DNA from: Candidatus Poribacteria bacterium
GTDB lineage: Bacteria > Poribacteria > WGA-4E > WGA-3G
DNA: 64,000 nucleotides
NCBI GenBank assembly: GCA_012271015.1
Contig: JAAXHD010000123.1
Span: forward strand, 32,138 to 96,137
Direction of reading: 5' to 3'
Numbering within the stretch: position 1 is the stretch's first letter; every line of letters starts with the position of its first letter. The notes under the pieces are model-generated. The model ran no database searches. It saw nothing but the letters and a program-made list of their open reading frames with translations, and had not been told where the DNA came from. The translations under genes and the position numbers were made by a program. Of the stretch, positions 3,112-64,000 are shown piece after piece.

Positions 3112-3266
3112 CGGAGATGCACAACCTAACAGGTTATGCTACAAAGATAATAACTTGCGTTAAAACAGCAACGAAAACGTAGTCCGTAACGCAGTAGAGG
3201 ACGGCTCCAACGCGAAAATCTTGAAGTTTCAAACCACGTTACTTCTCCGCAAGGAATAATTAAAAA

Positions 3267-4148
3267 ATGAAAATACTTATAACCGGCGCGAGCGGTAGGC
3301 TCGGTGAGTTTGTAATCCGAGAATTGGTGTCAGATCACGCATTAGTGCTGATGTCACGCAGAACACCACCCGCTGAATTCTCGCACCTCCCATTCATCCA
3401 AGGCGATCTGAATACCTTTGAGGACTGCCAGCGTGCTGTTGAAGGTGTGGACGCTATCCAACATCTCGGTGCACAACCCGGTCCCGTCGATCATCCAGAT
3501 TTACGTGCCCGCGCCGCTGAGCAGGGGATCCCCTTCGACGCAACCTTCAAAACGAACATGCTTGGCACTTACTACCTCATGCAAGCCGCAATTGAAGCAG
3601 ATGTCCACACGGTTGTGATGTCCGGAAGCAATTGCGCCTTAGGACACGGCTTTCGGATTAGCAAAACCCACATTCCAGTAGACTACCTCCCTATAGATGA
3701 AGAACACCCGTGCTATCCTGAAGACTCCTATAGTTTCTCTAAACGGTGTGGCGAGGATTTGTTGGCAAGTTACACCCGCGCTTATGGCATCCGAACCTAC
3801 GTTACACGTCCTGCGGGTATCAGCCCAGAAGAACGGAGAAAACAGATGGCGGAAAATGCTAAACCGACAACGGCTTGGACACCGTGGCTCTGGTGTTGGG
3901 TTGGGAGCGAAGATGTCGCAAGTGCACACCGCCTGATTATGGAAAAAGCGGATACGTTACCCGCGCACGATGTCTACTTTTTGAACGCCGACGACACTTC
4001 AGCCTTGGAACCTTCTCAAGAGTTAGTCGAGCGTTTTAAACCCGAATTTCTTCTGAAGGTGAGAACGCTTGAAGGACATCAATCGTTTATTACTTGCGAT
4101 AAACTGAAAAACGCCGTCGGATGGCAACACAAAACATCGTGGCGATAA
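3267..4148 (+). CDS. NAD-dependent epimerase/dehydratase (extended SDR family)
   Basis: N-terminal Rossmann motif ITGASGRLG and catalytic YxxxK (YSFSK). It is preceded by the conserved leader CCGCAAGGAATAATTAAAAAATG. Confidence 0.7.
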   Translation: MKILITGASGRLGEFVIRELVSDHALVLMSRRTPPAEFSHLPFIQGDLNTFEDCQRAVEGVDAIQHLGAQPGPVDHPDLRARAAEQGIPFDATFKTNMLGTYYLMQAAIEADVHTVVMSGSNCALGHGFRISKTHIPVDYLPIDEEHPCYPEDSYSFSKRCGEDLLASYTRAYGIRTYVTRPAGISPEERRKQMAENAKPTTAWTPWLWCWVGSEDVASAHRLIMEKADTLPAHDVYFLNADDTSALEPSQELVERFKPEFLLKVRTLEGHQSFITCDKLKNAVGWQHKTSWR

Positions 4149-4592
4149 TTTCTAATTTTGCTTGCGCGCAGTCAAGGCTATTCGGTAAGAATCTCTTCTT
4201 GTTGGTGCCGCACGCGCCGTTGTTGCGTGCTACGATCTTTGGCTTTTAGAGGAAATATCTTTCTAATTTTGCTTGCGCGCAGTCAAGGCTATTCGGCAAG
4301 AATCTCTTCTTGTTGGTGCCGCACGCGCCGTTGTTGTGTGCTACGATCTTTGGCTTTTAGAGGAAATATCTTTCTAATTTTGCTTGCGCGCAGTCAAGGC
4401 TATTCGGTAAGAATCTCTTCTTGTTGGTGCCGCACGCGCCGTTGTTGCGTGCTACGATCTTTGGCTTTTAGAGGAAATATCTTTCTAATTTTGCTTGCGC
4501 GCAGTCAAGGCTATTCGGCAAGAATCTCTTCTTGTTGGTGCCGCACGCGCCGTTGTTGCGTGCTACGATCTTTGGCTTTTGGAGGAAATATT
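4149..4592. repeat. Four tandem copies of a 111-bp unit in the 5' leader of the downstream oxidoreductase gene
   Basis: Units start at 4149, 4261, 4372 and 4483 (tttctaattttgcttgcgcgcagtcaaggctattcggtaagaatctcttcttgttggtgccgcacgcgccgttgttgcgtgctacgatctttggcttttagaggaaatatc). Each contains the hairpin GCACGC-N9-GCGTGC and ends in an SD-like GAGGAAATAT. Only the last copy is followed by ATG (4593). Confidence 0.9.
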
Positions 4593-5675
4593 ATGTCAAA
4601 CAGTGACAGAGTACGCATCGGTGTTGTCGGTGTCGGGAGTATCTCCGTGCGCGGTATCCTGCCACACCTCACGCAAGACGATGTCCAAGATAGATTACAG
4701 GTAACGGCTGTCTGTGACCCTGTTCCCGGTAGAGCACAAGCGGCCTCTGAAAAATTTAACGTTCCGTATGCGTACGAAACTTATGAAGCCCTCTTAGCAG
4801 ACGGACATGTAGATGCAGTCAGCATCGCATCGCCTATCGGATTGCATTACGAACAGGGAAAACTCGCCATTGAACACGGTCTCCACGCACATTTCAACAA
4901 GACGATGACAACGACTGTCAATGAAGCGGACGCTCTGATCGAATCGGCGGCGCGTAAAGGTGTAAAATTAGTGGCTTCCCCTGGAGAGATGCTCCGTCCG
5001 ATCCATCAAGAAATTCGCAGTCTTATTGCTGACGGTGCTATCGGAACGTTGACATGGGCAGCTGCTGGTTCCGCCTTTGGAAGATACCACGAAAACGAAT
5101 CCGTTAGACATGGTGACGATCCCCTCTCCAATATCAATCCTGCATGGTATTTCCGCAAACCGGGTGGTGGACCTCTCTATGATATGACTGTCTACGGCTT
5201 GCATACACTGACGGGTATCCTCGGACCTGCGAAACGTGTAACGGCGTTCTCCGGTGTTCGCCTCAAGGAACGCGAATTTCGAGGCGAGATGCTTCCGTGC
5301 GACATGGATGATAACACCTTCATTCTCCTTGACTTCGGCGAAGCATTTTACGGCTTTGTCTACGGTGCTGCTGCCGGTTCTGTCGTCAGAGGTAGGCTGG
5401 CAATTCACGGCACCAATGGCACGATTGAAGGCAACTTGCTGAATGGTAAACCCATTGATGCCCCAGACGGGGAGCTCCCACACGTTGTGGGACCGCATCG
5501 TAGCATCCAAGAATCGCACGTTTATGAGGACATTATGCAGTTGATGGATTGGATTCGCGAGGGTAAACCGACGATTGTCACAGCGGAGCATGCCCGGCAT
5601 GTCATAGAGATCTTCGATGCGGGGTACCGATCCGCGCAAACGGGACAGGCACAAGAGTTACGCACCACATTTTGA
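4593..5675 (+). CDS. Gfo/Idh/MocA family oxidoreductase
   Basis: MSNSDRVRIGVVGVGSISVRG.. is an N-terminal Rossmann fold typical of Gfo/Idh/MocA. GGAGG lies 8 nt upstream of ATG 4593. The upstream part of the 4158 ORF is a translation of the tandem repeat and was rejected. Confidence 0.75.
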   Translation: MSNSDRVRIGVVGVGSISVRGILPHLTQDDVQDRLQVTAVCDPVPGRAQAASEKFNVPYAYETYEALLADGHVDAVSIASPIGLHYEQGKLAIEHGLHAHFNKTMTTTVNEADALIESAARKGVKLVASPGEMLRPIHQEIRSLIADGAIGTLTWAAAGSAFGRYHENESVRHGDDPLSNINPAWYFRKPGGGPLYDMTVYGLHTLTGILGPAKRVTAFSGVRLKEREFRGEMLPCDMDDNTFILLDFGEAFYGFVYGAAAGSVVRGRLAIHGTNGTIEGNLLNGKPIDAPDGELPHVVGPHRSIQESHVYEDIMQLMDWIREGKPTIVTAEHARHVIEIFDAGYRSAQTGQAQELRTTF

Positions 5676-35030: not shown

Positions 35031-35849
35031 TTAAAAGGGATTCGGTACGGTAGTGAAATTCCGGTACCGGTCTTCGCCGCGCAGTAGAATCGGTTTCCAA
35101 GGACGCTTCAGCGAATTTTCCTCTGCCTGCTTTACCGATGGATCTATGTAGCGAATCGTCAGACCACATCTCCGACGTGTAGAATGATTCGGTAGGCTAC
35201 CGTGGATCATCTGTCCGTGGTGGATGGACATTTCACCGGCTTTCAGCACCAAATCTACGGCGGTTTCTGCTTCTGCTTCGGTGACGGGTACCTCTTGATT
35301 GATGCTCAGCAGGTTGCCTGCCTGGTCGGATGTCCCGTGTTCCTTGATGCCACGCTGATGGCTTCCCGGGATTACCTGCATACAGCCGTTCCCTGTATCG
35401 CTGTCGTCTATGGCATACCAAGCAGTAATCGCATCCGGTGGTTCAAGTCCCCAATACGTCACGTCTTGATGCCATGCCACGAACTTGTCGCGGGGACCGT
35501 ACTTGCAGAAGAAATGCGTAGCTAACAGCATCACATCGGGACCGATAAGTGCCTCGATGACATCTACAATTTTCGGATGCGTCGCGAGTTCCCAGATAAA
35601 TTGATAATCGAAATGCCAATCGACAAGACCAATTTCACATTTCTCTGCACCGACTTCCGCTTCCAATGCATCATAGGCTTGCCGATGGCGCGTTGCTTCA
35701 ACTTCACCGGAAACATGGATACCGGTCAAGAATCCGTCTTTTCGGTAATTTTCAGCAAGTTTTTTGGTTATACCTTGCGGTTCGGTAAAGGGGGTTTGTG
35801 CACTCACGGTTACCTCCGTATATCCGGAAGCTTGCATTGGCGGAACCAT
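35031..35849 (-). CDS. Phytanoyl-CoA dioxygenase (PhyH) family protein. The true start is probably just downstream of the in-frame conserved element at 35762-35790.
   Basis: PhyH-like core (..DGFLTGIHVSG.., HxD..H facial-triad context). The N-terminal 30 residues include the translated element TEPQGITKK. Confidence 0.6.
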   Translation of the reverse strand: MVPPMQASGYTEVTVSAQTPFTEPQGITKKLAENYRKDGFLTGIHVSGEVEATRHRQAYDALEAEVGAEKCEIGLVDWHFDYQFIWELATHPKIVDVIEALIGPDVMLLATHFFCKYGPRDKFVAWHQDVTYWGLEPPDAITAWYAIDDSDTGNGCMQVIPGSHQRGIKEHGTSDQAGNLLSINQEVPVTEAEAETAVDLVLKAGEMSIHHGQMIHGSLPNHSTRRRCGLTIRYIDPSVKQAEENSLKRPWKPILLRGEDRYRNFTTVPNPF

Positions 35850-36724
35850 TGTGAATCTTCCGGTGGCGATTCTTCTGGAGTTTTCATCGTCTCAAAGGTT
35901 TTCAAAGCGGGTGATACGGTTTCTGTCCATATCTGTTCGACTTCTTGAAAAGTTACAGGTTGGCGTTCGGTAATATTCTGTTGTTCGTAAGCCGTTAGCA
36001 ATTCCCGCATCTTGTTTCCGAGCCATGCGACTTCATCATCTACCATACGTTCACCGATACGTCGGTCTGATTCAAAGGCATTCGCCCCCATCGCAAAATG
36101 CGGTCCCTGTGTGTCCGCCGCAGGCATCCGCGACATGTCAACACAGTCTGGTTCCAACGCCCATAGCAATGAAGTCTCAACTCTACCGGCGTGGTCTCCA
36201 CCGTCACCCTGCTGACTGAACCCCGGTGTGTTTGCCTCAAAATCGGGAAGCCCATAGAGCCGCATCGCGAAGTGGGGTTGAATTAGAGATAGGAGGGTCT
36301 TAAGGTCCTGCCAATTCGGACCGTAGTGCCCTGTGAGGCAAATAGCGGCGTGGAATCCGAGGGCATCGGCGGCACGAACATGGTAGCAGACGTTTTTGAA
36401 GTGCTGCCATGCTGGCATAGCGGTGAGCCAACTGCGGACTTCTCCGACACTCCGATATGCCCAGTTCGCATACATACCGTGTTCGTGGATATGCCAATAG
36501 TCGGGAGGTGCAACGATACCACCGTGGGTTTGCGCTGCACGACAAGCGATCGCATGTGCTTTAAGCGCATCCAACCCTACAGTGTTCTGCGGACCATGTG
36601 GTTCGCAGAGTCCATAAGTGAAATAAACAGCGGGACAGTCGTTGAATGCGGCTTCCAATTGATCCGGGAACATCCGTTCCCAACGCACCTCTTTTTGCAT
36701 TCGTATTTCCTCTTGGATAATCAT
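35810..36724 (-). CDS. Creatininase-family amidohydrolase
   Basis: GLCEPHGPQNTVGLD resembles the creatininase E-x-HG-P..D metal-binding motif. Confidence 0.45.
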   Translation of the reverse strand: MIIQEEIRMQKEVRWERMFPDQLEAAFNDCPAVYFTYGLCEPHGPQNTVGLDALKAHAIACRAAQTHGGIVAPPDYWHIHEHGMYANWAYRSVGEVRSWLTAMPAWQHFKNVCYHVRAADALGFHAAICLTGHYGPNWQDLKTLLSLIQPHFAMRLYGLPDFEANTPGFSQQGDGGDHAGRVETSLLWALEPDCVDMSRMPAADTQGPHFAMGANAFESDRRIGERMVDDEVAWLGNKMRELLTAYEQQNITERQPVTFQEVEQIWTETVSPALKTFETMKTPEESPPEDSQWFRQCKLPDIRR

Positions 36725-37848: not shown

Positions 37849-40800
37849 CTACAATACCTCACGTAAAAAGCGCGCAGTGTGGGATTCCTGCACCGAGGCG
37901 ACTTCCTCTGGTGTCCCCATGGCAACGACTTCTCCGCCGCCTTTGCTTCCTTCAGGTCCCAAGTCGATGATCCAGTCGGCAGACTTGATAACGTCGATGT
38001 TATGTTCGACAGCGATAATCGTGTTGCCCGCATCAACGAGTCGGTTCAGTACCTTGAGGAGTTTCTGGATGTCGTCAAAGTGGAGCCCTGTCGTCGGCTC
38101 ATCCATGATATAGAGCGTTGAACCGGTTTGGCGACGTGCCAATTCTTTCGCAAGTTTGACGCGCTGCGCCTCACCACCGGAGAGGGTCGTCGCGGATTGT
38201 CCCAATTCTATATAACCGAGTCCAACATCTGTTAACATCTGAAGCGTCCGACAGATGCGTGGACTTTCACTGAAGAATGCGAGTGCTTCGTCCACTGTCA
38301 TCGCTAAGACTTCAGCAATATTTTTGTCCTTGTAACGGATTTCAAGGGTTTCCATACTATAACCGGTGCTATTACACGTCTCACACGGCATCCACACATC
38401 AGGAAGGAAATGCATCTCAATGCGATTGAAACGGTGCCCCTCACAAACATGACACTGCCCCTGTGCGAGGTTGAAACTGAATGTGCCCATACTATACCCA
38501 CGCATCTTCGCATCATGTTGCTCAGCGAAGAGTTCACGGATTTTCGTAAACAGGTCGGTATAAGTTGCTGGATTGGAACGCGGCGTCTCTCCGATCGCCT
38601 TCTGGTCTACATTGATGAGACGTTTGATATGGCTAACACCGCGGATGGTTTCATATTCCGGTAGACCATAGTCGTTATATATCGGTTCTCGGTGACCATC
38701 GCTGAAATAATGGGTATAACGACGGTCCTTGGGATCACCAGTTTTGATAGAACTACGACTTTCAAGAGCGGGTTTTAGTGTGCCTTCAACGAGCGAACTC
38801 TTTCCGCACCCTGAGACACCAGTGACACAGGTGAGTGTCCCAAGTGGAATCTCAACATCAATGTCTTTGAGATTATTCGTTTTCGCCCCGAATATTGTTA
38901 ATTGTTTTCCTATGCCTTCGCGCCGAGTGCTGGGAACAAGAATCTCCACTTCATTAGAAAGATAGGCTTGCGTCAAAGATTTTTTAATTTTACCTTGCGG
39001 GGACCTTTCGGGGGTTTGTGCTTTGACGTGCTTTTCTGTAGAGTCGCCCTCCACTTCGTTACGGGCTATCGGTTGCGTGCTAATCACTGATTGCTGATCG
39101 CTGACCGCTGATCGCTGAAATGTATCCGGCGTACCGATAGCGACAATCTCACCACCTCCCTTGCCTGCTTGGGGACCGAAGTCGATTACATGATCGGAGG
39201 CTAATATTGTATCGCGGTCGTGTTCAACGACGAGGACGCTGTTCCCAATATCGCGGAGTTCCTTGAGTGCCGCAATGAGGCGTTCTTGGTCGCGCGGGTG
39301 TAAGCCGATACTCGGTTCGTCAAGAATATAGGTTACACCGGTGAGACCGCTACCGAGTTGGCTCGCGAGCTGGATTCTGCGCATTTCGCCACCGGAAAGC
39401 GTTGGTGCTCCGCGGTCTAACGCCAGATAACCGAGCCCAATATCTTCCAAGAACTGGAGCCGCGTCCGGATTTGGTGTAGGACTTCGGCTTCAAATTCAG
39501 GTGAAGTATGAATGTGAAGTGACGGATGCGTCGCTCTTGAGGTTGACACGCCTGTTGCGATCAGGAAATCGTTCCTATCAGTCTCCGCGTCAGCCGAAAC
39601 GACCGCCGCTTCGATTCGATTTAACTGTGTGTCGAAGAACTCAATAATTTCGGTAATTGACAATGCCATCAATTCAGAGACAGTTACATTCTCAAATCTG
39701 ACACAACTTGGAAAGGGTTTCAGTCGTGTGCCGTGGCATTGTTTGCACGCCTCGTATGGTGGGTGCATGTTTCTTCCGCGTCCATCACAGAAATCGCAAG
39801 CCCCTATTTTGTTGTTAAAGGAGAAGTGGCGTGGTGTCAATTGCCCAAAATTGTTGCCGCAAGAACGACACATCGCGTGTTCACTAAAGAAATGTCGTTC
39901 CGTTGTTTGTCCGCGTTCTATTTTTTCTATGAGTACGAACCCACCACTTTGTAGGAGTGCTAACTCCACGGCTTCCGTAAAACGACTTTTTTCCTCGTCT
40001 ACAAGTTCGACGCGGTCGATGACGATAAAGATTTCATGGTGAATGCCCCTACTCAACTTCGGCGTTTCATCAAGTCGGTGAATCTCACCGTCAATTTGAA
40101 CCCGTACAAATCCTGCTCTTTGCAATCGACGAAATACATCAGCGTAATCCTCGTTCCCTTTCAAACCGTACGCTGACTCACTTGCATTTACATCAACAAT
40201 TTTACCCCTTGACACGCCTTCTTTACCTTCCGGAAGCAGCAAGAAGTTCGTGAGCGGTGCGAGGACATCCACCCGCTGTTCGCGGAGGATTTCAAAAACC
40301 TGCTCCGTTATTTCTTCCGCTGTCTGTGGCTGTACCTCCTTTTGGCAATCTGGACAGTAGGGCTTACCCCATCTGGCATAAAGTGTACGGAGTCCATCGT
40401 GTATCTCCGTAATCGTCGCGACAGTGGATCTTGGGTTTTGCCCAGCATTGGCGTGCGAAATAGCAATCGCGGGCGAGAGTCCCTCAATTTTTGAGACTTT
40501 GGGCTTTTCCATCTGCCCTATAAACTGACGCGCATAAGTGCTGAGTGTTTCAATATAACGACGCTGTCCTTCGGCATAAACAGTATCCAGTGCAAGCGAT
40601 GTCTTACCCGAACCGCTCACCCCAGTCAACGCGGTCATCTTTCGGTGCGGAATATCGATGTCAATATCTTTCAGATTATTTTCTGTAGCTCCTCGCACAA
40701 CAATGTTTTTAATTTTTCTTTGCGGTTCGTTCAAGTGAATTGGTCGTTCCACGCTCCGTTCCGTACATCCGCACCCCACTTCGTTACAGGCTACGATTTC

Positions 40801-43758
40801 GTCGGATTCTGCAATTATACCTTGTGGTTCATTCGGATCGGAAGAAGAGCAGATATCGAAATCCCCGCGAAGTGCCCGACCGGTGTAAGATTCCGGCATG
40901 TCCGCGATCTGTTCAGGTGTCCCCACGGCAACGATAGTACCGCCATCAATACCGCCCTCAGGTCCCAAATCAATGAGATAATCTGCGGAGTTAACGACTT
41001 CCAGATTATGTTCAACGACGACGACCGTATTGCCATCGTCTACGAGTCTATGAAGTATCGTCAACAGTTTATTTACATCGTCAAAGTGCAAACCGGTTGT
41101 GGGTTCGTCGAGGATATAGAGCGTTTTACCGGTGCCGCGTTTGGAAAGTTCCCGCGAAAGTTTGATACGTTGTGCTTCGCCACCTGAGAGCGTGGGGGCG
41201 GGTTGTCCGAGTTTAATGTAATCCAAACCGACATCATGGAGCAGTTTCAACCCTCTTGCGATCCTCGGAATATCGGCGAAATGTGCAAGTGCAGTCTCAA
41301 TATCCATTTCAAGGACTTCAGAGATGTTCTTCTCCTTGTATTTAATGGCGAGGGTTTCGCTATTGAAGCGTTTTCCCTCACACACCTCACACTCCACCCA
41401 GACATCAGAGAGGAGTCCCATATCGACTTTTTTTGCACCGTTCCCGCTACAGGCTTCACATCTACCACCAGAGACGTTGAAACTAAACCGTCCGGGTTTA
41501 TAGCCTCGCAATTTGGCATCGGGCAACCCCGCATAGAGTGCGCGAATATTGTCGAAGACTTTTGTGTATGTCGCTGCGTTGGAACGCGGTGTGCGTCCGA
41601 TAGGTGCCATGTCGATGTTGATAATTTTGTCTATGACATCGGAGACCGGAACGCTTTTCCCTTCAATGATGCCCCGAATATCGTCATAATCCCCCGGCAC
41701 AGTCTTCGCTTTCATGAGGTCGCGGGCGAGTGCTTTGTAGAGAATATCGTGAATTAAGGAACTCTTTCCAGAACCACTCACACCCGTTACACAGCAGAGC
41801 GTACCCATAGGTACTTTAGGACTGATACCTTGGAGATTGTTCTGGCGTGCGTTGCAGATTTGTATCCACCTATCTCCTGTTGGTCGGCGGGATTCGGGTT
41901 GAACGATCACCTGATCGCCTCGGAGATATTGGGCAGTGAGTGTATTGCTCTCCTTCATGAACTGTGCGGGTGTACCGATATCCGTTATATTCCCGCCCTT
42001 AATGCCAGCACCGGGACCGAAATCGACGATAAGATCAGCCACCAACATCGTTGCTTCATCGTGCTCAACGACGATAACGGTGTTGCCTTGATTCCGCAAG
42101 TTTAAGAGGGTCATGAGCAAACCGGCGTGGTCGCGTGGATGTAAACCGATGCTGGGTTCATCAAGAACATAGGTGACATCTCGTAACCCTGCTCCTACCT
42201 GACTCGCAAGGCGAATGCGCTGTGCTTCACCACCGGAAAGGGTCGGTGCGGGACGTGCAAGCGTCAGATACCCCAACCCTACGTCCATAAGGAATCCGAG
42301 TCGTCCTCGAATTTCTTTTAAGAGTTCTGACGCGATGAGCGTCTCGCGCTCTGGAAGTTCCAACTCGCCGAAGAATTGGGTGGCATCCTGAATAGACATC
42401 TCAAGAATGTCCGTTATAGAGGTATCGCCTATCGTCACGGCTTTTACCCATGGGGTAAGTCGGGTTCCTTCACATGTCCTGCAGGGCATTTTGACAAAAT
42501 AGTCCGGGAAGGTGTCTTCATCGGTTTCCTCGTCATCCTCAAAGCGATACTTCTGCTCTTCAGTTGGAATGATGCCGTGAAAACGGGCGCGATATTGCCG
42601 TCGTTGCTTTCGCCCTCTGTGTCTACCTGTACTGGGGGTGGTAATCGTAAGAATATCGTCCCCGGTGCCGTAGAGAATGGCATGTTGCTGTTCCGGTGTG
42701 AGGTCTTTCCAAGGTGTCTCAATATCGAATCCGAGGTGTTTTGCGAGTGCCTCAGCGATTACCTTTTCCTTGAGAGTATTTCGCGTATCAAGAGGTCCCC
42801 ATAGACTTATGGCACCTTGCATGATGGAAAGCGTCTCATCTGGCACGATCAACCTTGGCAAGATTCCCATTTCCACGCCTAAACCGCGACAATTCTCACA
42901 CATTCCATCAGGGTTGTTGAAAGAGAAGTGGCGTGGTTCTGGTTTCACGAAACTGATCCGGCAGTGCGCGCAGGTATAATCCTCGCTAAACAGCAGGTCG
43001 TCGTCCTCCGTCGCGAATGGAGATCCTTCGCCTTCAGTGGGAACAACGTGGACAAGGAGGCTTCCATCTCCACGCATGAGGGCAGTAGATACGGCTTGCG
43101 CAACACGAGGTTCAACTCCCTCCTTGATAACAATCCGGTCAATGACAACATCAATGTCGTGACGTTGATTGGGATTCAAGGTGAGACCGGGTCGGAGTTC
43201 GTATATTTCACCATCGATTCGCAACCTCGCGAAACCCGCTTTGCGTAAATCTTCAAGTTCTCTTTGGTGTGCGCCGCGGGAGCCTCTGATAATCGGTGCT
43301 AAAATGATAAGTCTGGTGCGCTCTGGATAGTCGATCAGAGCTTGGACGATATCTGCGGCAGTTTGTGAACCGACCTCACGCCCGCATTCGGGACAGTGGA
43401 ATTGCCCTGCGCGGGCATAGAGGACACGGAGGTAGTCGTAGACTTCTGTTACGGTTGCCACTGTGGAACGCGGGTTATGTCCCGTTGATCCCTGATCAAT
43501 GGCAATAGAAGGAGACAATCCGACAATTTCGTCTACATCTGGCTTGCCGAGTTGCCCTAAAAACTGCCGGGCGTACGCCGATAAAGACTCGATGTATCGG
43601 CGTTGTCCTTCGGCGTAAACGGTATCAATCGCCATCGAAGATTTGCCGGAACCGCTCACACCGGTGAAGACGATGAGTTTGTCTTTTGGAAGTTGGATAT
43701 CAATGTTTCTGAGATTGTGCTCGCGTGCACCTTGTACAAGAATCGACTCTTCTGTCAT
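37849..43758 (-). CDS. uvrA: Uninterrupted 1969-codon ORF containing two complete UvrA (excinuclease ABC subunit A) units in tandem. UvrA unit 1 is about 43758..40750. UvrA unit 2 is about 40699..37849 and is itself interrupted in frame at 38975-39120.
   Basis: Four ABC ATPase modules (Walker [33 protein letters not shown]; signature LSGGEAQRI x3 and LSGGEMRRI). UvrA zinc-finger cysteines. C-terminus ..[12 protein letters not shown]. The junctions carry the conserved repeat element (see findings). Confidence 0.85.
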
Positions 43759-43853
43759 TTTTTAATTATTCCTTGCGGTTCGGTCAGAGGGATTAAGACA
43801 TTCTTGTTTCTTTGCGTATATCTGCCTGCGCCGGTGTTGCAGGCTACAATTTC
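43759..43853 (-). promoter_or_regulatory. Full copy of the recurrent conserved element (motif B hairpin plus motif A ..CTGACCGAACCGCAAGGAATAATTAAAAA) abutting the uvrA ATG
   Basis: See findings. The same roughly 95-nt bipartite element is at 47304..47396, 40706..40840 and 38980..39072. Motif A alone is at 63902..63940, 3246..3266 and 35762..35790. Confidence 0.6.
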
Positions 43854-43986
43854 GGTTTAGTGTTTTTGCTTGGGTGTTTCCCCAGGAATCGGAGTTCCTT
43901 CCTACCGAGAAACCTGTACGTCATGGAATAGAGTGCAGTCCAGGTAACGGAAGAATTAAAAACCTATTTTTTGTTACAGGACGCAG

Positions 43987-46118: not shown

Positions 46119-47399
46119 TTATAAGGCAGTACCCAATTCTTTCGCGATAGTGTAGACATCTTTGTCCCCGCGACCTGAAAGGCAGACAGCAATAATTTGA
46201 TTTTTACCAAGTTTAGGTGCAAGCTCACGCAGATAGGCAATGGCATGTGCGGATTCTAATGCGGGGATGATCCCCTCCGTCTCTGATAGCAATCGGAATC
46301 CCTCTACCGCCTCTGCATCGGTAATCGGCACGTATTCCGCTCTACCGGTTTCACGATAATAACTGTGTTCCGGTCCGACACCCGGATAATCTAATCCTGC
46401 AGAGATCGAGTGTGCGGGGGTTATCTGACCGTCATCCTCTTGCAACAGATAGCACTTCGCACCGTGAAAGACACCAACACTACCCGCAGTGAGAGGTGCG
46501 GCGTGTCGTCCGCTACGAATGCTGTCACCTGCGGCTTCTACACCGATAAGCCGAACAGATTGATCGGCATAGAAGGGATAGAACATACCGAGTGAATTAC
46601 TCCCACCCCCGACACAGGCGACGACACAATCAGGTAAAGTCCCTGCCGCCTCTAAAATCTGTGCTCTCGCTTCGGCACCGATGACGGATTGGAAGTCTCG
46701 AACGATCATTGGGTAAGGGTGTGCGCCGACAACCGAGCCGAGAAGCAGATAGGTGGTTCGGACATTCGTGACCCAATCTCGGAAGCAGGCGTTGATCGCA
46801 TCCTTGAGCGTCCGCGACCCAGAGTTAACCGGTACGACCTTTGTGCCCATCAATTGCATGCGGAAAACGTTGAGTGCCTGCCGTTCTATGTCTTCCTCAC
46901 CCATATACACTTCGCATTCCATACCGAACTTTGCGGCGACAGTGGCTGTTGCGACGCCGTGTTGTCCAGCACCGGTCTCGGCAATGATGCGTTTTTTGCC
47001 CATCCACCGCGCGAGGAGGATTTGACCGATTGCGCTGTTAATTTTGTGAGCACCTGTATGGTTGAGGTCTTCCCGTTTGAGATATATTTTTGCGCCACCG
47101 AGTGTTTCTGTTAAATGCTCGGCGTAATAGAGTGGGTTTGGTCGCCCGACATACTCACGGAGGTAGTACTGAAACTCTTGCTGGAATTCGGGATTGTCCT
47201 TGAGTTTCATGTACGCTTCTTCGAGTTCTAAAAGGGCGGGCATGAGTGTTTCGGGGACGTATCTGCCTCCGAATTGTCCGAAATGTCCTGTCGCATCAGG
47301 AAGTTTTTTAATTATACCTTGCGGTTCGTTTAGATGGACCTGGGATTGCATATTCATCTCCGTATATCTGCCTGCGCCGTTGTTGCAGGCGACAATCAT
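46119..47399 (-). CDS. trpB: Tryptophan synthase beta chain. The N-terminus is uncertain because the conserved element is in frame at codons about 20-32.
   Basis: ..[19 protein letters not shown].., the PLP lysine region ..[12 protein letters not shown].., and GGGSN. The first 32 codons ([32 protein letters not shown]) are a translation of the repeat element. Alternative ATG codons lie at 47357 and 47351. Confidence 0.85.
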
Positions 47400-60725: not shown

Positions 60726-62180
60726 TTACTCACCCGTGTAGAGTTTCCCGAAATAGGGTCGATACCCTGCAGGTCCAGGGAAACCGTTCCAGTAATGCGC
60801 ATCGGCAGGGAAAGCAGCCTCGCCGCCACTCCGAAGCCACGCCATGAGCGCGGGATCGGTGCCACGGCGTTCGATTTCATCAACAGCGGCGGCGTGCAGT
60901 TTCGCAACGATGTCGGGATGTTCATCGGCAACATCGTCTAATTCACCGAGTCGGACGAGGCTTGAATTTTCAGGTTTCGTGCCGACCTCTAAACTCCACT
61001 CACGATCAAAGATAGTGAAGAGGTTGAGATTCGGATTCTCTGTGCTATTCTCCCACCGCTCAATACTTCCACCAGAGAGTGCAAGCTGCCTTTCACCGGC
61101 TTCCCCGTTACGTGCTGGGGTTAAGATGTCGTGTCCTTCAATGCCGTCGGGACGTGCTTCCCCTAAGATATTGAGAATTGTCGGGAAGAAGTCCTGCGGT
61201 TGGACGATGACGTTACTTCTCCCTGTATCTCCTTCGGGAAGCCGAATAAAGAGCGGGACATGTGTCTCCTGCTGACGGACAGGTTGTCCCTTGCCGAACC
61301 TGCCGCGTTCACCGACATTTGTCCCGTGGTCAGCGGTGAAGATGACAGCGGTATTCTTGTCAAGCCCCGTGGATTCAAGTGCGTCAAGAAATTGTCCGAA
61401 GCAGTGGTCCATCCATGTCGTTTTCGCGGCGTATTGCGCTTTGATGTGCTGTTTCGCTTCATCTGAGAGCTTCGCATTACCCCTTGCGCCGAGACTGCGC
61501 GGATCAACGCGTCCATCGTAACCCGGGCGGGTATCGTATTTTTTCATGAACTCAAGCGGTGCATCCCAAGGTTCGTGGGGATCGAAGCAGTCTACCCAGA
61601 GGAAGAAATTGTCTCGCTTAGCATTGTCTTTGAGGAATTGCGCCGCGGTGTTGAAGAGTCTTGCGCAGTTCCAATCTTCAGGTTTTTTGCGGTTTCTGTT
61701 TGCGCGTGCGTAACTACGAAGCATCCCGGATTCAGCGGCTTTGTCATCGATACAATCGAAGAGAGGTTGATGGGTCCAGTTGTCGGGCCATACTACAGTA
61801 TCGGAAATCCAGTCTCTGTCTACTTCCGCACCGCGAACGAACGTCCATGCGTGGAAGGGCCAGTCGAAGTTATGCCCACCGTTGACGAGATGCGGTGTAT
61901 CGTGAATGAGCTGCGTCGCGTAGCCATTTTCTGCGAGTGTCCACGGCAAAGTTTGGCGTTCATGACGAAGCGGTTTCCACGGGTGGATGGGCGCGCCGTA
62001 TTGCCCAGTGATGACATCAGTCCGATAGGGGATAGTTGGGAAACTGGCGCAGAAAGCGTAGTCAAACGCCATGGCTTCGGAAGCAAACCGATCAATGTTG
62101 GGTGTTTCTATCCAGTCATTTCCGTTCGCGCCGATGTAGTCGTAGCGGAGTGTATCAATAACAATATAAGCGAGATTCAT
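60726..62180 (-). CDS. Sulfatase-like hydrolase (alkaline phosphatase superfamily)
   Basis: N-terminal ..IVIDTLRYDYIGANG.. and overall sulfatase-family pattern. The canonical C/S-x-P-x-R is not clearly identifiable (CASFPTIPYR). Confidence 0.5.
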   Translation of the reverse strand: MNLAYIVIDTLRYDYIGANGNDWIETPNIDRFASEAMAFDYAFCASFPTIPYRTDVITGQYGAPIHPWKPLRHERQTLPWTLAENGYATQLIHDTPHLVNGGHNFDWPFHAWTFVRGAEVDRDWISDTVVWPDNWTHQPLFDCIDDKAAESGMLRSYARANRNRKKPEDWNCARLFNTAAQFLKDNAKRDNFFLWVDCFDPHEPWDAPLEFMKKYDTRPGYDGRVDPRSLGARGNAKLSDEAKQHIKAQYAAKTTWMDHCFGQFLDALESTGLDKNTAVIFTADHGTNVGERGRFGKGQPVRQQETHVPLFIRLPEGDTGRSNVIVQPQDFFPTILNILGEARPDGIEGHDILTPARNGEAGERQLALSGGSIERWENSTENPNLNLFTIFDREWSLEVGTKPENSSLVRLGELDDVADEHPDIVAKLHAAAVDEIERRGTDPALMAWLRSGGEAAFPADAHYWNGFPGPAGYRPYFGKLYTGE

Positions 62181-62327
62181 TTTTTTAATTTTCCTTTTCT
62201 TGGCTTTCGGCTTTCAGGTCGCTGCGCTTTCGGCTATCAGTAGTGTCTATGGTAGTTGCTGAAGTTTTGTTCGCCGCAAATGCCTCTTGTCCGATTGCCG
62301 ATGGCTGACCCCCGATAGCCAACGACA

Positions 62328-63076: not shown

Positions 63077-63901
63077 TTATGCCTCCTTAATTGCGTCGCG
63101 GTCGGCGGTTGCCCACTCTTCCCAGCGTTCTTCATCGGAACGGAGGAAACCGGAATTGCACCGGGGTTGAAGCTGCTCGTCCACACCGAGGAGTCGCATG
63201 TGTTGATGATTATTGGCGGCTTTCGCAGTCTCCAACAACTCTTGGGTATGTGGACCGGTGTGATGATCGGTGTGTTTTAGCCATGTGAGGTTATAATAGA
63301 TGCTAAAAAAATAACGTAAATTTCCAGAAGTGTTCGGGGTGCCGGAGTGGATCAGTCCGTTATGTGTGATGACAACATCACCGGCTCCCATGTGAACCAA
63401 TGTTTCGTCGGGATGCGGGACACTTCGTTGTGAATCTTCCAAGGTAATCGGTTTGCGATGCGAACCGACAATGACACGGAGGGGTCCGTATTCATCCGTT
63501 AAATCCTGTAGATAGGATATAGCGTTGATGGCGTTCGGGCGATGATAGGCATCAGTAAAAGGAACGTGTGCCCAGCGATCACGGTGCCACCCTGAGACTC
63601 TGCCTTCCGCTTTTTCCGCTTCCATGGATGGAAAGGCGGCAAGCGTGAGGTTATCTAATTGCACGAAGGGCCCCATCACTCTTTCTACAAATTCAAGGAT
63701 TGTTGGATGTGAGACAGCGGGCCACATCAGTTCAGGTGCCAATTCAAGCGTATTTCCGAACCATGTTTGACCGTCGTTGGCGGCAGAGAGTTCTTGATGT
63801 TTCTCTCGCCAATTTTGCATTTGCGGTTCGTCAAAGACTTTCTCAAAGATTGTGAAACCATCGGTTCTATAGGCTTCAAAGTGTTCGTCAAGCGTTGCCA
63901 T
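63077..63901 (-). CDS. Phytanoyl-CoA dioxygenase (PhyH) family protein
   Basis: ..YRTDGFTIFEKVFDEPQM.. and GWHRD. It is preceded immediately by the conserved leader element. Confidence 0.6.
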   Translation of the reverse strand: MATLDEHFEAYRTDGFTIFEKVFDEPQMQNWREKHQELSAANDGQTWFGNTLELAPELMWPAVSHPTILEFVERVMGPFVQLDNLTLAAFPSMEAEKAEGRVSGWHRDRWAHVPFTDAYHRPNAINAISYLQDLTDEYGPLRVIVGSHRKPITLEDSQRSVPHPDETLVHMGAGDVVITHNGLIHSGTPNTSGNLRYFFSIYYNLTWLKHTDHHTGPHTQELLETAKAANNHQHMRLLGVDEQLQPRCNSGFLRSDEERWEEWATADRDAIKEA

Positions 63902-64000
63902 CTTTTAATTATTCCTTGCGGTTCGGTCAGGCGGATTAGATATTCAACACGTTTCTCCGTAGACCTAAAGAAACACCCCGCTGAATGCCACACGCGCATT

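Follow-up and report, generated by a model that had tools for sequence, protein, structure and literature searches.

What is the conserved sequence that stands directly against the start codon of uvrA, at position 43758 of the 64-kb window (the whole stretch of DNA analysed here), and what is it doing in front of other, unrelated genes? A preliminary description had proposed a recurrent bipartite element that includes the initiation codon and is either a promoter/translation-initiation cassette or a small selfish element carrying one. Its individual sightings held up: CTGACCGAACCGCAAGGAATAATTAAAAA is read directly 5' of the uvrA ATG, a copy with one mismatch precedes the PhyH ATG at 63901, a shorter form (CCGCAAGGAATAATTAAAAA-ATG) precedes the epimerase at 3267, a degenerate form (AAAGGAAAATTAAAAAA-ATG) precedes the sulfatase at 62180, and the upstream GCCTGC..GCAGGC block is present at both uvrA and trpB. 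The bipartite architecture stood only in part, since both blocks are there but alignment of the window copies gave similarity that runs continuously over ~95 nt, a single colinear unit rather than separate blocks. The 20-mer CCGCAAGGAATAATTAAAAA has seven matches at three or fewer mismatches in the window, against a chance expectation of 0.01, and by profile search the window holds an interspersed repeat of seven full copies (~95-110 nt each) and one four-copy tandem array. We think it probable that this is a non-autonomous, interspersed, Poribacteria-specific repeat of ~95-110 nt that is mobile or duplicative and has a portable role in translation initiation. The copies and their parts are as follows.

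43759..43853, minus strand: the flagged full copy, abutting the uvrA ATG (43758); nhmmer 71.6 bits, model positions 2-97.
43759..43778, minus strand: its near-invariant 3' block CCGCAAGGAATAATTAAAAA, an SD-like AAGGA and an 11-nt A/T spacer, then ATG; conservation stops abruptly after the block, and AAGGA is enriched in ATG-abutting copies.
43824..43847, minus strand: its GTAG tag and hairpin 1 (GTA-GCCTGC-AACACCGGC-GCAGGC); stem 98% paired in 84 copies, with compensatory changes.
43862..43883, minus strand: a hairpin mini-repeat, GGGGAAACACCCAAGCAAAAAC, 22-26 nt, with a CTTGGG/CCCAAG-type hairpin, just 5' of the uvrA copy.
47305..47399, minus strand: full copy (profile search) fused in frame to trpB, the junction without an ATG; orthologous copies in L084 and L006.
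40706..40801, minus strand: full copy in the linker that joins the UvrA halves, where the reading frame runs through it; the L110 ortholog lacks it.
40813..40835, minus strand: a partial additional 3' block, GAACCACAAGGTATAATT, just 5' of the 40706 copy (profile search).
38981..39072, minus strand: full copy forming a 99-nt in-frame insertion within UvrA2, with GTPDTFQRS before it and SLTQAYL after it; the L110 ortholog has no such insertion.
35761..35853, minus strand: copy at the creatininase/PhyH junction with a different hairpin in place of hairpin 1 (profile search).
3172..3266, plus strand: full copy with a GTCC/GGAC stem variant and a type-2 tail, abutting the epimerase ATG at 3267 (profile search).
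63902..64000, minus strand: copy abutting the PhyH ATG at 63901, with a nested insertion, running past the window end (profile search).
4149..4592, minus strand: a tandem array of four 111-nt copies that are 98% identical and belong to a divergent subfamily; they have GTAG, a GCACGC/GCGTGC stem and a 3' block of degenerate form, GCGCAAGCAAAATTAGAAA.
62181..62198, minus strand: a 3' block standing alone and degenerate in sequence, AAAAGGAAAATTAAAAAA, ahead of the sulfatase ATG (62180), seen in the sequence; stand-alone blocks occur at other loci too.

All seven full copies point the same way as their downstream gene. An ATG follows only three of the seven; the remaining four lie inside long ORFs, two of them in the ORF of the fused uvrA-uvrA gene. 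The 35761 copy contains the TAA of the upstream gene and a GGAGG-N5-GTG, by way of which the PhyH gene (35031) likely starts inside the element. The array at 4149-4592 adjoins the stop codon of the convergent epimerase gene, and that gene (window 3172-4592) has a co-oriented copy at its ATG and the inverted array at its stop codon. Throughout the sampled DNA, 12 of 16 pairs of oppositely oriented copies bracket one ordinary gene with their 3' blocks facing inward, and no transposase was found among the bracketed genes. The 5' end of a 505-aa ORF with a TTG start, 4158-5675 on the plus strand, overlaps the four 111-nt copies of the array; the opening ~145 codons of that ORF are probably not genuine, and the gene itself likely begins beyond 4592.

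Read 5' to 3', the unit comprises an A-rich leader (..ACCAAAACC), a GTAG-tagged 21-nt REP-type hairpin, GGATATACGGAG, a variable middle of ~35 nt that contains GGAG and forms a weak second helix, and the block CCGCAAGGWAWAATTAAAAA. The 3' boundary is sharp, conservation ending immediately after ..TTAAAAA, and the 5' boundary is gradual, fading 12-16 nt upstream of the hairpin (..ACCAAAAcC, then GTAGCC). Covariation bears out the hairpin noticed in the preliminary description: the facing columns of hairpin 1 (8-11 x 26-29) are paired in 98% of cells in 84 copies, with 12, 10 and 36 double compensatory changes, and the covariation score of 0.40 compares with 0.11-0.16 in slid controls and was reached in 0 of 500 shuffles. 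The stem has 4-6 bp, and its inner C-G/U-A pair (61 C-G, 21 U-A) closes a G-N-A triloop. Stem sequences fall into discrete, complementary subfamilies (GCCTGC/GCAGGC, GCCC/GGGC, GTCC/GGAC, GCTC/GAGC and GCTT/AAGC, with GCACGC/GCGTGC the subfamily of the 4149 array). Ahead of the stem, GTAG is exact in 58 of 84 copies (69%; G 88%, T 85%, A 99%, G 96%), and its last G pairs with a conserved C. The second helix (ACGGAGAGG with CCTCACCG, just 5' of the block) is 69% paired in a register that varies by subfamily. Folding of whole copies against shuffles gave no excess stability (z from -1.6 to +1.6), and Rfam returned no match at the gathering threshold, a permissive search giving one chance lncRNA match with E=2.4. 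On these two results we rejected a riboswitch- or ribozyme-like RNA. Comparison of the element ends revealed no terminal inverted repeats.

The most constant part is CCGCAAGG, near-invariant in all copies, including those inside arrays, inside ORFs and at convergent gene ends, and within the hexamer W-A-W-A-A-T the A at position 2 and the T at position 6 are invariant. Does the unit extend to the start codon, as the preliminary description had it? At locus L062 (2651-3594, minus strand) there are seven tandem copies with a 142-nt period and an ATG adjoins only the last of them; the array-internal copies have none, and the start codon therefore lies outside the repeat unit. A peptide-coding module (..EPQGIIKK) was likewise rejected, its frame being open in only 57 of 137 copies and the ATG-abutting copies using another frame.

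How widespread is the repeat? With CCGCAAGGWATAATTAAAA as query against one genome per species, the matches listed comprise at least 112 loci, nearly all of them in Candidatus Poribacteria MAGs, many of which are closed 5-6 Mb chromosomes; there were few stray chance matches. The copies that the preliminary description had suggested looking for elsewhere are thus plentiful. By profile, 197 copies were counted in 888 kb of the genome loci among the matches listed, and with the seed copies excluded the density works out at ~9.7 kb per copy for the genome loci, ~7.3 kb for metagenome loci and ~9.1 kb for the window, which extrapolates to ~550-750 copies per 5.5 Mb genome. When metagenomes were scanned with the 5' hairpin alone, all 21 of the 21 loci recovered had the 3' block ~70 nt downstream, and hairpin and block thus form one obligate unit. 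A larger autonomous parent element was rejected, as the hairpin-only scan returned complete ~100-nt units only. Our literature search found no prior description of such a repeat in Poribacteria.

The unit is mobile or duplicative, as is shown by filled and empty orthologous sites, subfamily swaps, arrays and nested insertions. One case is the uvrA gene itself. The minus-strand ORF at 37849-43758 encodes a 1969-aa head-to-tail UvrA-UvrA fusion, and its ortholog at L110 (562-6348), of 1928 aa and 84% identical, has the same fusion and is missing both internal copies. Against that ortholog the 38981 copy is a clean 99-nt (33-codon) in-frame gap with a crisp 3' junction, and the 40706 copy is inserted into the linker that joins the two UvrA halves. 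Conservation of the fusion in another Poribacteria species indicates that it is genuine and older than the element insertions. In a second case, L017, an old SD (ATTAAGGAGA) has been kept ~115 nt upstream, with leader and element inserted just before the ATG; the ortholog of that gene in the window (32192) is an empty site. Different subfamilies stand at one and the same start codon in different species (L082 vs L083 and L033), and several otherwise "empty" orthologs keep only a mini 3' block, (T)AAGGAATAATTAAAAA-ATG. Identity between orthologous copies is 0.61, as against 0.64 at 4-fold synonymous sites; orthologous copies are therefore conserved no better than such sites, which speaks for turnover, and an ancient leader under purifying selection was rejected on the same figures.

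Duplication takes two forms: tandem arrays with periods of 104-142 nt, and frequent tandem duplications, 13-21 nt long, of the 3' block alone (..AATTAAAAA-NCCGCAAGGAATAATTAAAAA-ATG; L032, L033, L043, L009, L073, L069, L090 and L119). The latter suggest slippage or repeated recombination at the block. Target-site duplications, whose presence the preliminary description had raised, did not emerge: exact-match and mismatch-tolerant tests both gave the shuffled-pair null, apart from arrays, with one isolated TSD-like case (ATGYCCAAAG, L083). Among unseeded matches 22 were 5'-truncated and 3 were 3'-truncated, an asymmetry to which we give no weight because the 3' end is detected more easily. A classical MITE was rejected, the repeat having neither terminal inverted repeats nor target-site duplications. 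A GTAG tag and hairpin without such repeats or duplications would point to single-stranded-DNA processing of the Y1/RAYT type (PMC3733652). The hairpin might be recognised, as single-stranded DNA, by a transposase of this type and the unit spread in that way, and the same machinery may be the reason why CCGCAAGG is more conserved than an SD requires; this is the weakest part of our proposal. With E. coli RayT as query against 3662 ORFs from ~1.1 Mb of Poribacteria DNA, a small sample for a single-copy gene, the best match had E=0.15, and no RAYT gene emerged from that DNA.

Where do the copies lie relative to genes? In a census of 188 copies, the unit abuts a start codon in 88 (47%; 81 ATG, 4 GTG and 3 TTG), so the association with start codons noticed in the window extends well beyond it; 18% are followed by another copy or a duplicated block, 12% abut the 3' end of a convergent ORF, 22 (12%) are in frame with the downstream ORF through a junction without a start, and in 6% a co-oriented ORF begins 4-60 nt downstream. 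The spacing is tight, the ATG standing at exactly +1 in 58 of the 81 ATG-abutting copies and within +/-1 in 76. The hairpin-seeded metagenome sample behaves similarly: 11 of 17 distinct loci directly abut a start codon, and at three more the start codon comes right behind a partial duplication. In 47 of 55 cases (85%) a start-abutting copy lies behind a co-directional ORF, and in four it faces a divergent gene; the co-directional upstream ORF ends a median of 78 nt before the hairpin, with gene gaps of ~170 nt. The genes downstream of copies are functionally unrelated, both housekeeping and metabolic. At convergent junctions, the opposing ORF terminates at a TAA from the complement of ..AATTAAAAA in 16 of 25 cases.

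Do the start-abutting copies serve the genes that they precede? Support that they may is found in the Shine-Dalgarno-like part of the block, since 52 of 82 copies with AAGGA abut an ATG as against 29 of 100 with AAGGT (odds ratio 4.2; Fisher p=5.6e-6, a value that is optimistic because orthologous copies are not statistically independent). Perfect TATAAT is, conversely, depleted in ATG-abutting copies (21 vs 45), where AATAAT predominates. Enrichment of AAGGA together with depletion of TATAAT favours a portable ribosome-binding site over a promoter. Sigma-70-type sites in or upstream of the unit occur in 17 of 114 copies, compared with 13 +/- 3 in shuffles, by a consensus that may not be that of the host; by the same consensus there are none at uvrA and none in the L062 array, and no -35 or TG extension. 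The preliminary description was accordingly borne out as regards a small, apparently selfish repeat with translation-initiation signals, one that is dispersed in high copy, polymorphic in its insertions between species and enriched for AAGGA at start-abutting copies. It was not borne out as regards a promoter, given sigma-70 sites at shuffle level (with that same proviso about the consensus), depleted TATAAT and the 85% of start-abutting copies that follow a co-directional gene.

The block is not simply the generic ribosome-binding site of this organism, a possibility that we rejected because other genes in the window have ordinary AGGAG-type SD sites. The AAGGA of the element lies 2-4 nt farther from the ATG than these native SDs do, and half of all copies carry AAGGT, a weaker SD. 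We also rejected the idea that the SD is kept accessible by design: prediction leaves the A/U spacer 0.81 unpaired, which composition alone explains, and the block is predicted to be just as accessible in a 5'-shuffled control. With accessibility at the control level and no excess of folding, design at the RNA level is unproven.

From these sequence comparisons we infer that the 3' block serves as a portable region for initiating translation. In start-abutting copies it would form the initiation region of the gene, in which an unstructured A/U spacer of 11 nt separates an SD-like AAGGA from the AUG, and would displace or replace the native SD, the whole unit presumably being transcribed inside polycistronic mRNAs. 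Where no start codon follows a copy, the internal GGAG and an ATG or GTG may be used instead and the block translated as EPQGIIKK. The trpB gene may be an example: its 3' block is probably translated because a conserved in-frame ATG lies 6 nt past the GGAG of the element in the window, L084 and L006, and the predicted translation of the block, at trpB as at PhyH (35031), is EPQGI(I/T)KK. Alternatively, the whole unit may be tolerated as an in-frame linker insertion, as it would be twice in uvrA-uvrA.

A bolder version of the portable initiation region is that the repeat homes to start codons, a mobile RBS cassette that delivers a ready-made initiation region to the exact -1 of native starts, without target-site duplication, and that has rewired initiation for perhaps 5-10% of genes across a whole uncultivated phylum. 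We offer this tentatively and regard it as rather doubtful. The retained mini blocks, the block duplications and the reoccupation of one site hint at homing to, or recombination at, pre-existing blocks. If start-codon homing did occur, it would imply an undescribed mechanism of target recognition, perhaps one that seeks out 3' blocks already in place or recognises the initiation region itself, and the cassette would be a natural analogue of synthetic RBS insulator parts.

Could the repeat instead be purely selfish, a REP-like element with no RBS function, in which the 3' block is a recognition or cleavage end and adjacency to starts reflects an insertion preference or tolerance? The near-invariance of CCGCAAGG in every class of copy, in excess of what an SD requires, would agree with this, as would the absence of purifying selection at orthologous sites and the 12% of copies that abut convergent stop codons, with TAA supplied in 16 of 25. 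A GTAG tag and hairpin without TIR or TSD also fits Y1-type elements (PMC3733652). Yet we consider a purely selfish repeat unlikely, for it leaves without explanation why AAGGA enrichment is specific to ATG-abutting copies and why stand-alone 3' blocks are kept before ATGs where the rest of the element is missing. Moreover, the native SD has been displaced or lost in L017 and L082, so that the element must supply the initiation signals for an essential-looking gene.

A second alternative, a regulon signal, holds that the unit is a shared cis-regulatory 5' leader whose hairpin and block are bound by a common protein or sRNA, co-regulating hundreds of genes. Orientation that is always with the downstream gene, a fixed distance to the ATG and a conserved, covarying hairpin are what such a leader would show, and ACGGAG and CAAGGA are two GGA motifs that we take to resemble CsrA-type sites. 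There is also a precedent in Neisseria REP2, with 14 co-regulated genes (PMC3184786). Co-regulation is nevertheless improbable, in our judgment, when the downstream housekeeping genes are unrelated in function, when copies also occur in ORFs, arrays and convergent gene ends, and when orthologous copies are not conserved above the neutral level and exchange subfamilies; nor is there any thermodynamic structure beyond the 4-6 bp hairpin, or an Rfam match, and GGT stands in place of GGA in half of the copies. We give scarcely any credence to an outward-facing promoter for leaderless mRNAs, in which W-A-W-A-A-T would be the -10 box and transcription would begin 7 nt downstream, at the A of the ATG, for although TATAAT-TAAAAA-ATG has the canonical -10-to-+1 distance, the hexamer is invariant at A2 and T6 and the exact +1 spacing is sharper than an SD usually needs, TATAAT gives way to AATAAT in precisely the ATG-abutting copies (21 vs 45), a -35 or TG extension is missing and promoter-like sites are at shuffle level, 85% of copies lie behind co-directional genes with ~170-nt gaps, and the block is read through as coding sequence in 12%.

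Taking the unit as a mobile repeat that carries an initiation region, how does it compare with repeats already described? Among the RAYT-associated GTAG-REPs the stems form complementary subfamilies and some copies lie inside repair genes, and both uvrA genes of Opitutus terrae carry double GTAG-REP inserts (Di Nocera et al., 2013; PMC3733652). The Poribacteria repeat resembles them in its GTAG head by a short GC-rich stem, its alternative complementary stems and its high copy number, in lying mainly between co-directional or convergent ORFs and rarely between divergent ones, in termini that can give stop codons, and in its in-frame intragenic copies, notably in uvrA. The 21-nt hairpin is within the 20-40 nt and has the GC-rich stem of a GTAG-REP palindrome; the tag, exact in 69% of our copies, is >90% conserved in most GTAG-REP families. 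In contrast to GTAG-REPs, however, the palindrome makes up no more than the first quarter of a ~100-nt obligate unit and is never free-standing (21 of 21 loci), the unit keeps to the 5' end of the gene downstream and not to the 3' end of the gene upstream, and copies are single or in head-to-tail arrays, not inverted dimers/REPINs.

A different kinship is suggested by Neisseria REP2 (CREN) and the Borrelia IR, which are 120-150 bp long, comprise promoter, RBS and ATG, and are apparently portable 5' UTRs (Delihas, 2011; PMC3184786). They and our repeat have in common the lack of TIRs, stem-loops near the 5' end and a 3' RBS fused to the ATG of unrelated ORFs; of the two 5' stem-loops that characterise them, hairpin 1 of the Poribacteria repeat is strong and the second helix 69% paired. 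Relatedness in sequence is unlikely. REP2 occurs in ~25 copies per genome and contains a promoter (PMC3184786), whereas the Poribacteria repeat occurs in hundreds, has no recognisable promoter, is mostly operon-internal and has in-frame intragenic copies. MIRUs, which "insert themselves at start codons" (PMC12548453), are similarly short mobile repeats that lie between co-directional genes at a start codon, share the orientation of those genes and form tandem VNTR-like arrays, but they have an internal ORF coupled by an ATGA overlap where the Poribacteria repeat would initiate with an SD. An ATGA overlap is present in 29 of 62 copies, and in only six of those 29 does an internal ORF with a canonical start reach 20 codons or more; with frame a open in 57 of 137 copies, MIRU-type coupling was rejected as a general mode. 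Rickettsia palindromic elements (RPEs) are comparable as in-frame intragenic repeats of ~100-150 nt tolerated in surface or linker regions, but in Poribacteria the in-frame copies are a minority (12%), most being intergenic and start-codon-adjacent. The repeat thus lacks at least one defining feature of each of GTAG-REP, REP2/Borrelia IR and MIRU, having no recognisable promoter, no coupling ORF and a hairpin that is neither free-standing nor 3'-anchored.

If the inferred role holds, several hundred genes in each Poribacteria genome take their RBS from a mobile repeat, core genes such as uvrA, trpB, atpA, ilvC, hisB/F and nuo among them. Translation initiation in an uncultivated phylum of sponge symbionts would then be partly a product of selfish-DNA dynamics, and the repeat would be the largest natural example so far of the rare REP2/MIRU-type start-codon repeat. 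It would also link GTAG-REP-type hairpins to a 5'-UTR function, and the tendency of such elements to sit inside uvrA recurs here. For annotation, the repeat yields false N-terminal extensions, spurious ORFs (e.g., 4158-5675) and apparent insertions in conserved proteins.

Several other repeats were observed in the same DNA. A CRISPR array at 929-2632 on the plus strand has 23 copies of a 37-nt repeat (GTTGAAATAAGAAGATTCTCGATTACGAGATTGAAAC) with unique spacers of ~36-40 nt and may extend toward the window start. The mini-repeat beside the uvrA copy also occurs in L001, L029, L053, L073, L025 and L124, in either orientation, beside copies of the main element or nested in them. Upstream of several copies (window ~43905-43950, minus strand; L038; L050) lies a conserved module of ~45 nt, CTCTATTCCAYKACGYRCAGKTTTCT.., which at some loci continues into TGGTATAAT-like sequence. 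Lastly, heptamer-like runs (CAGCGAT/CAGCGGT/CAGCAAT and GATAACC/GAGAACT) adjoin copies and other 5' regions, for instance at ~39040-39080 (minus strand) and upstream of 7446 (minus strand), and those inside UvrA2 are translated as a low-complexity linker.
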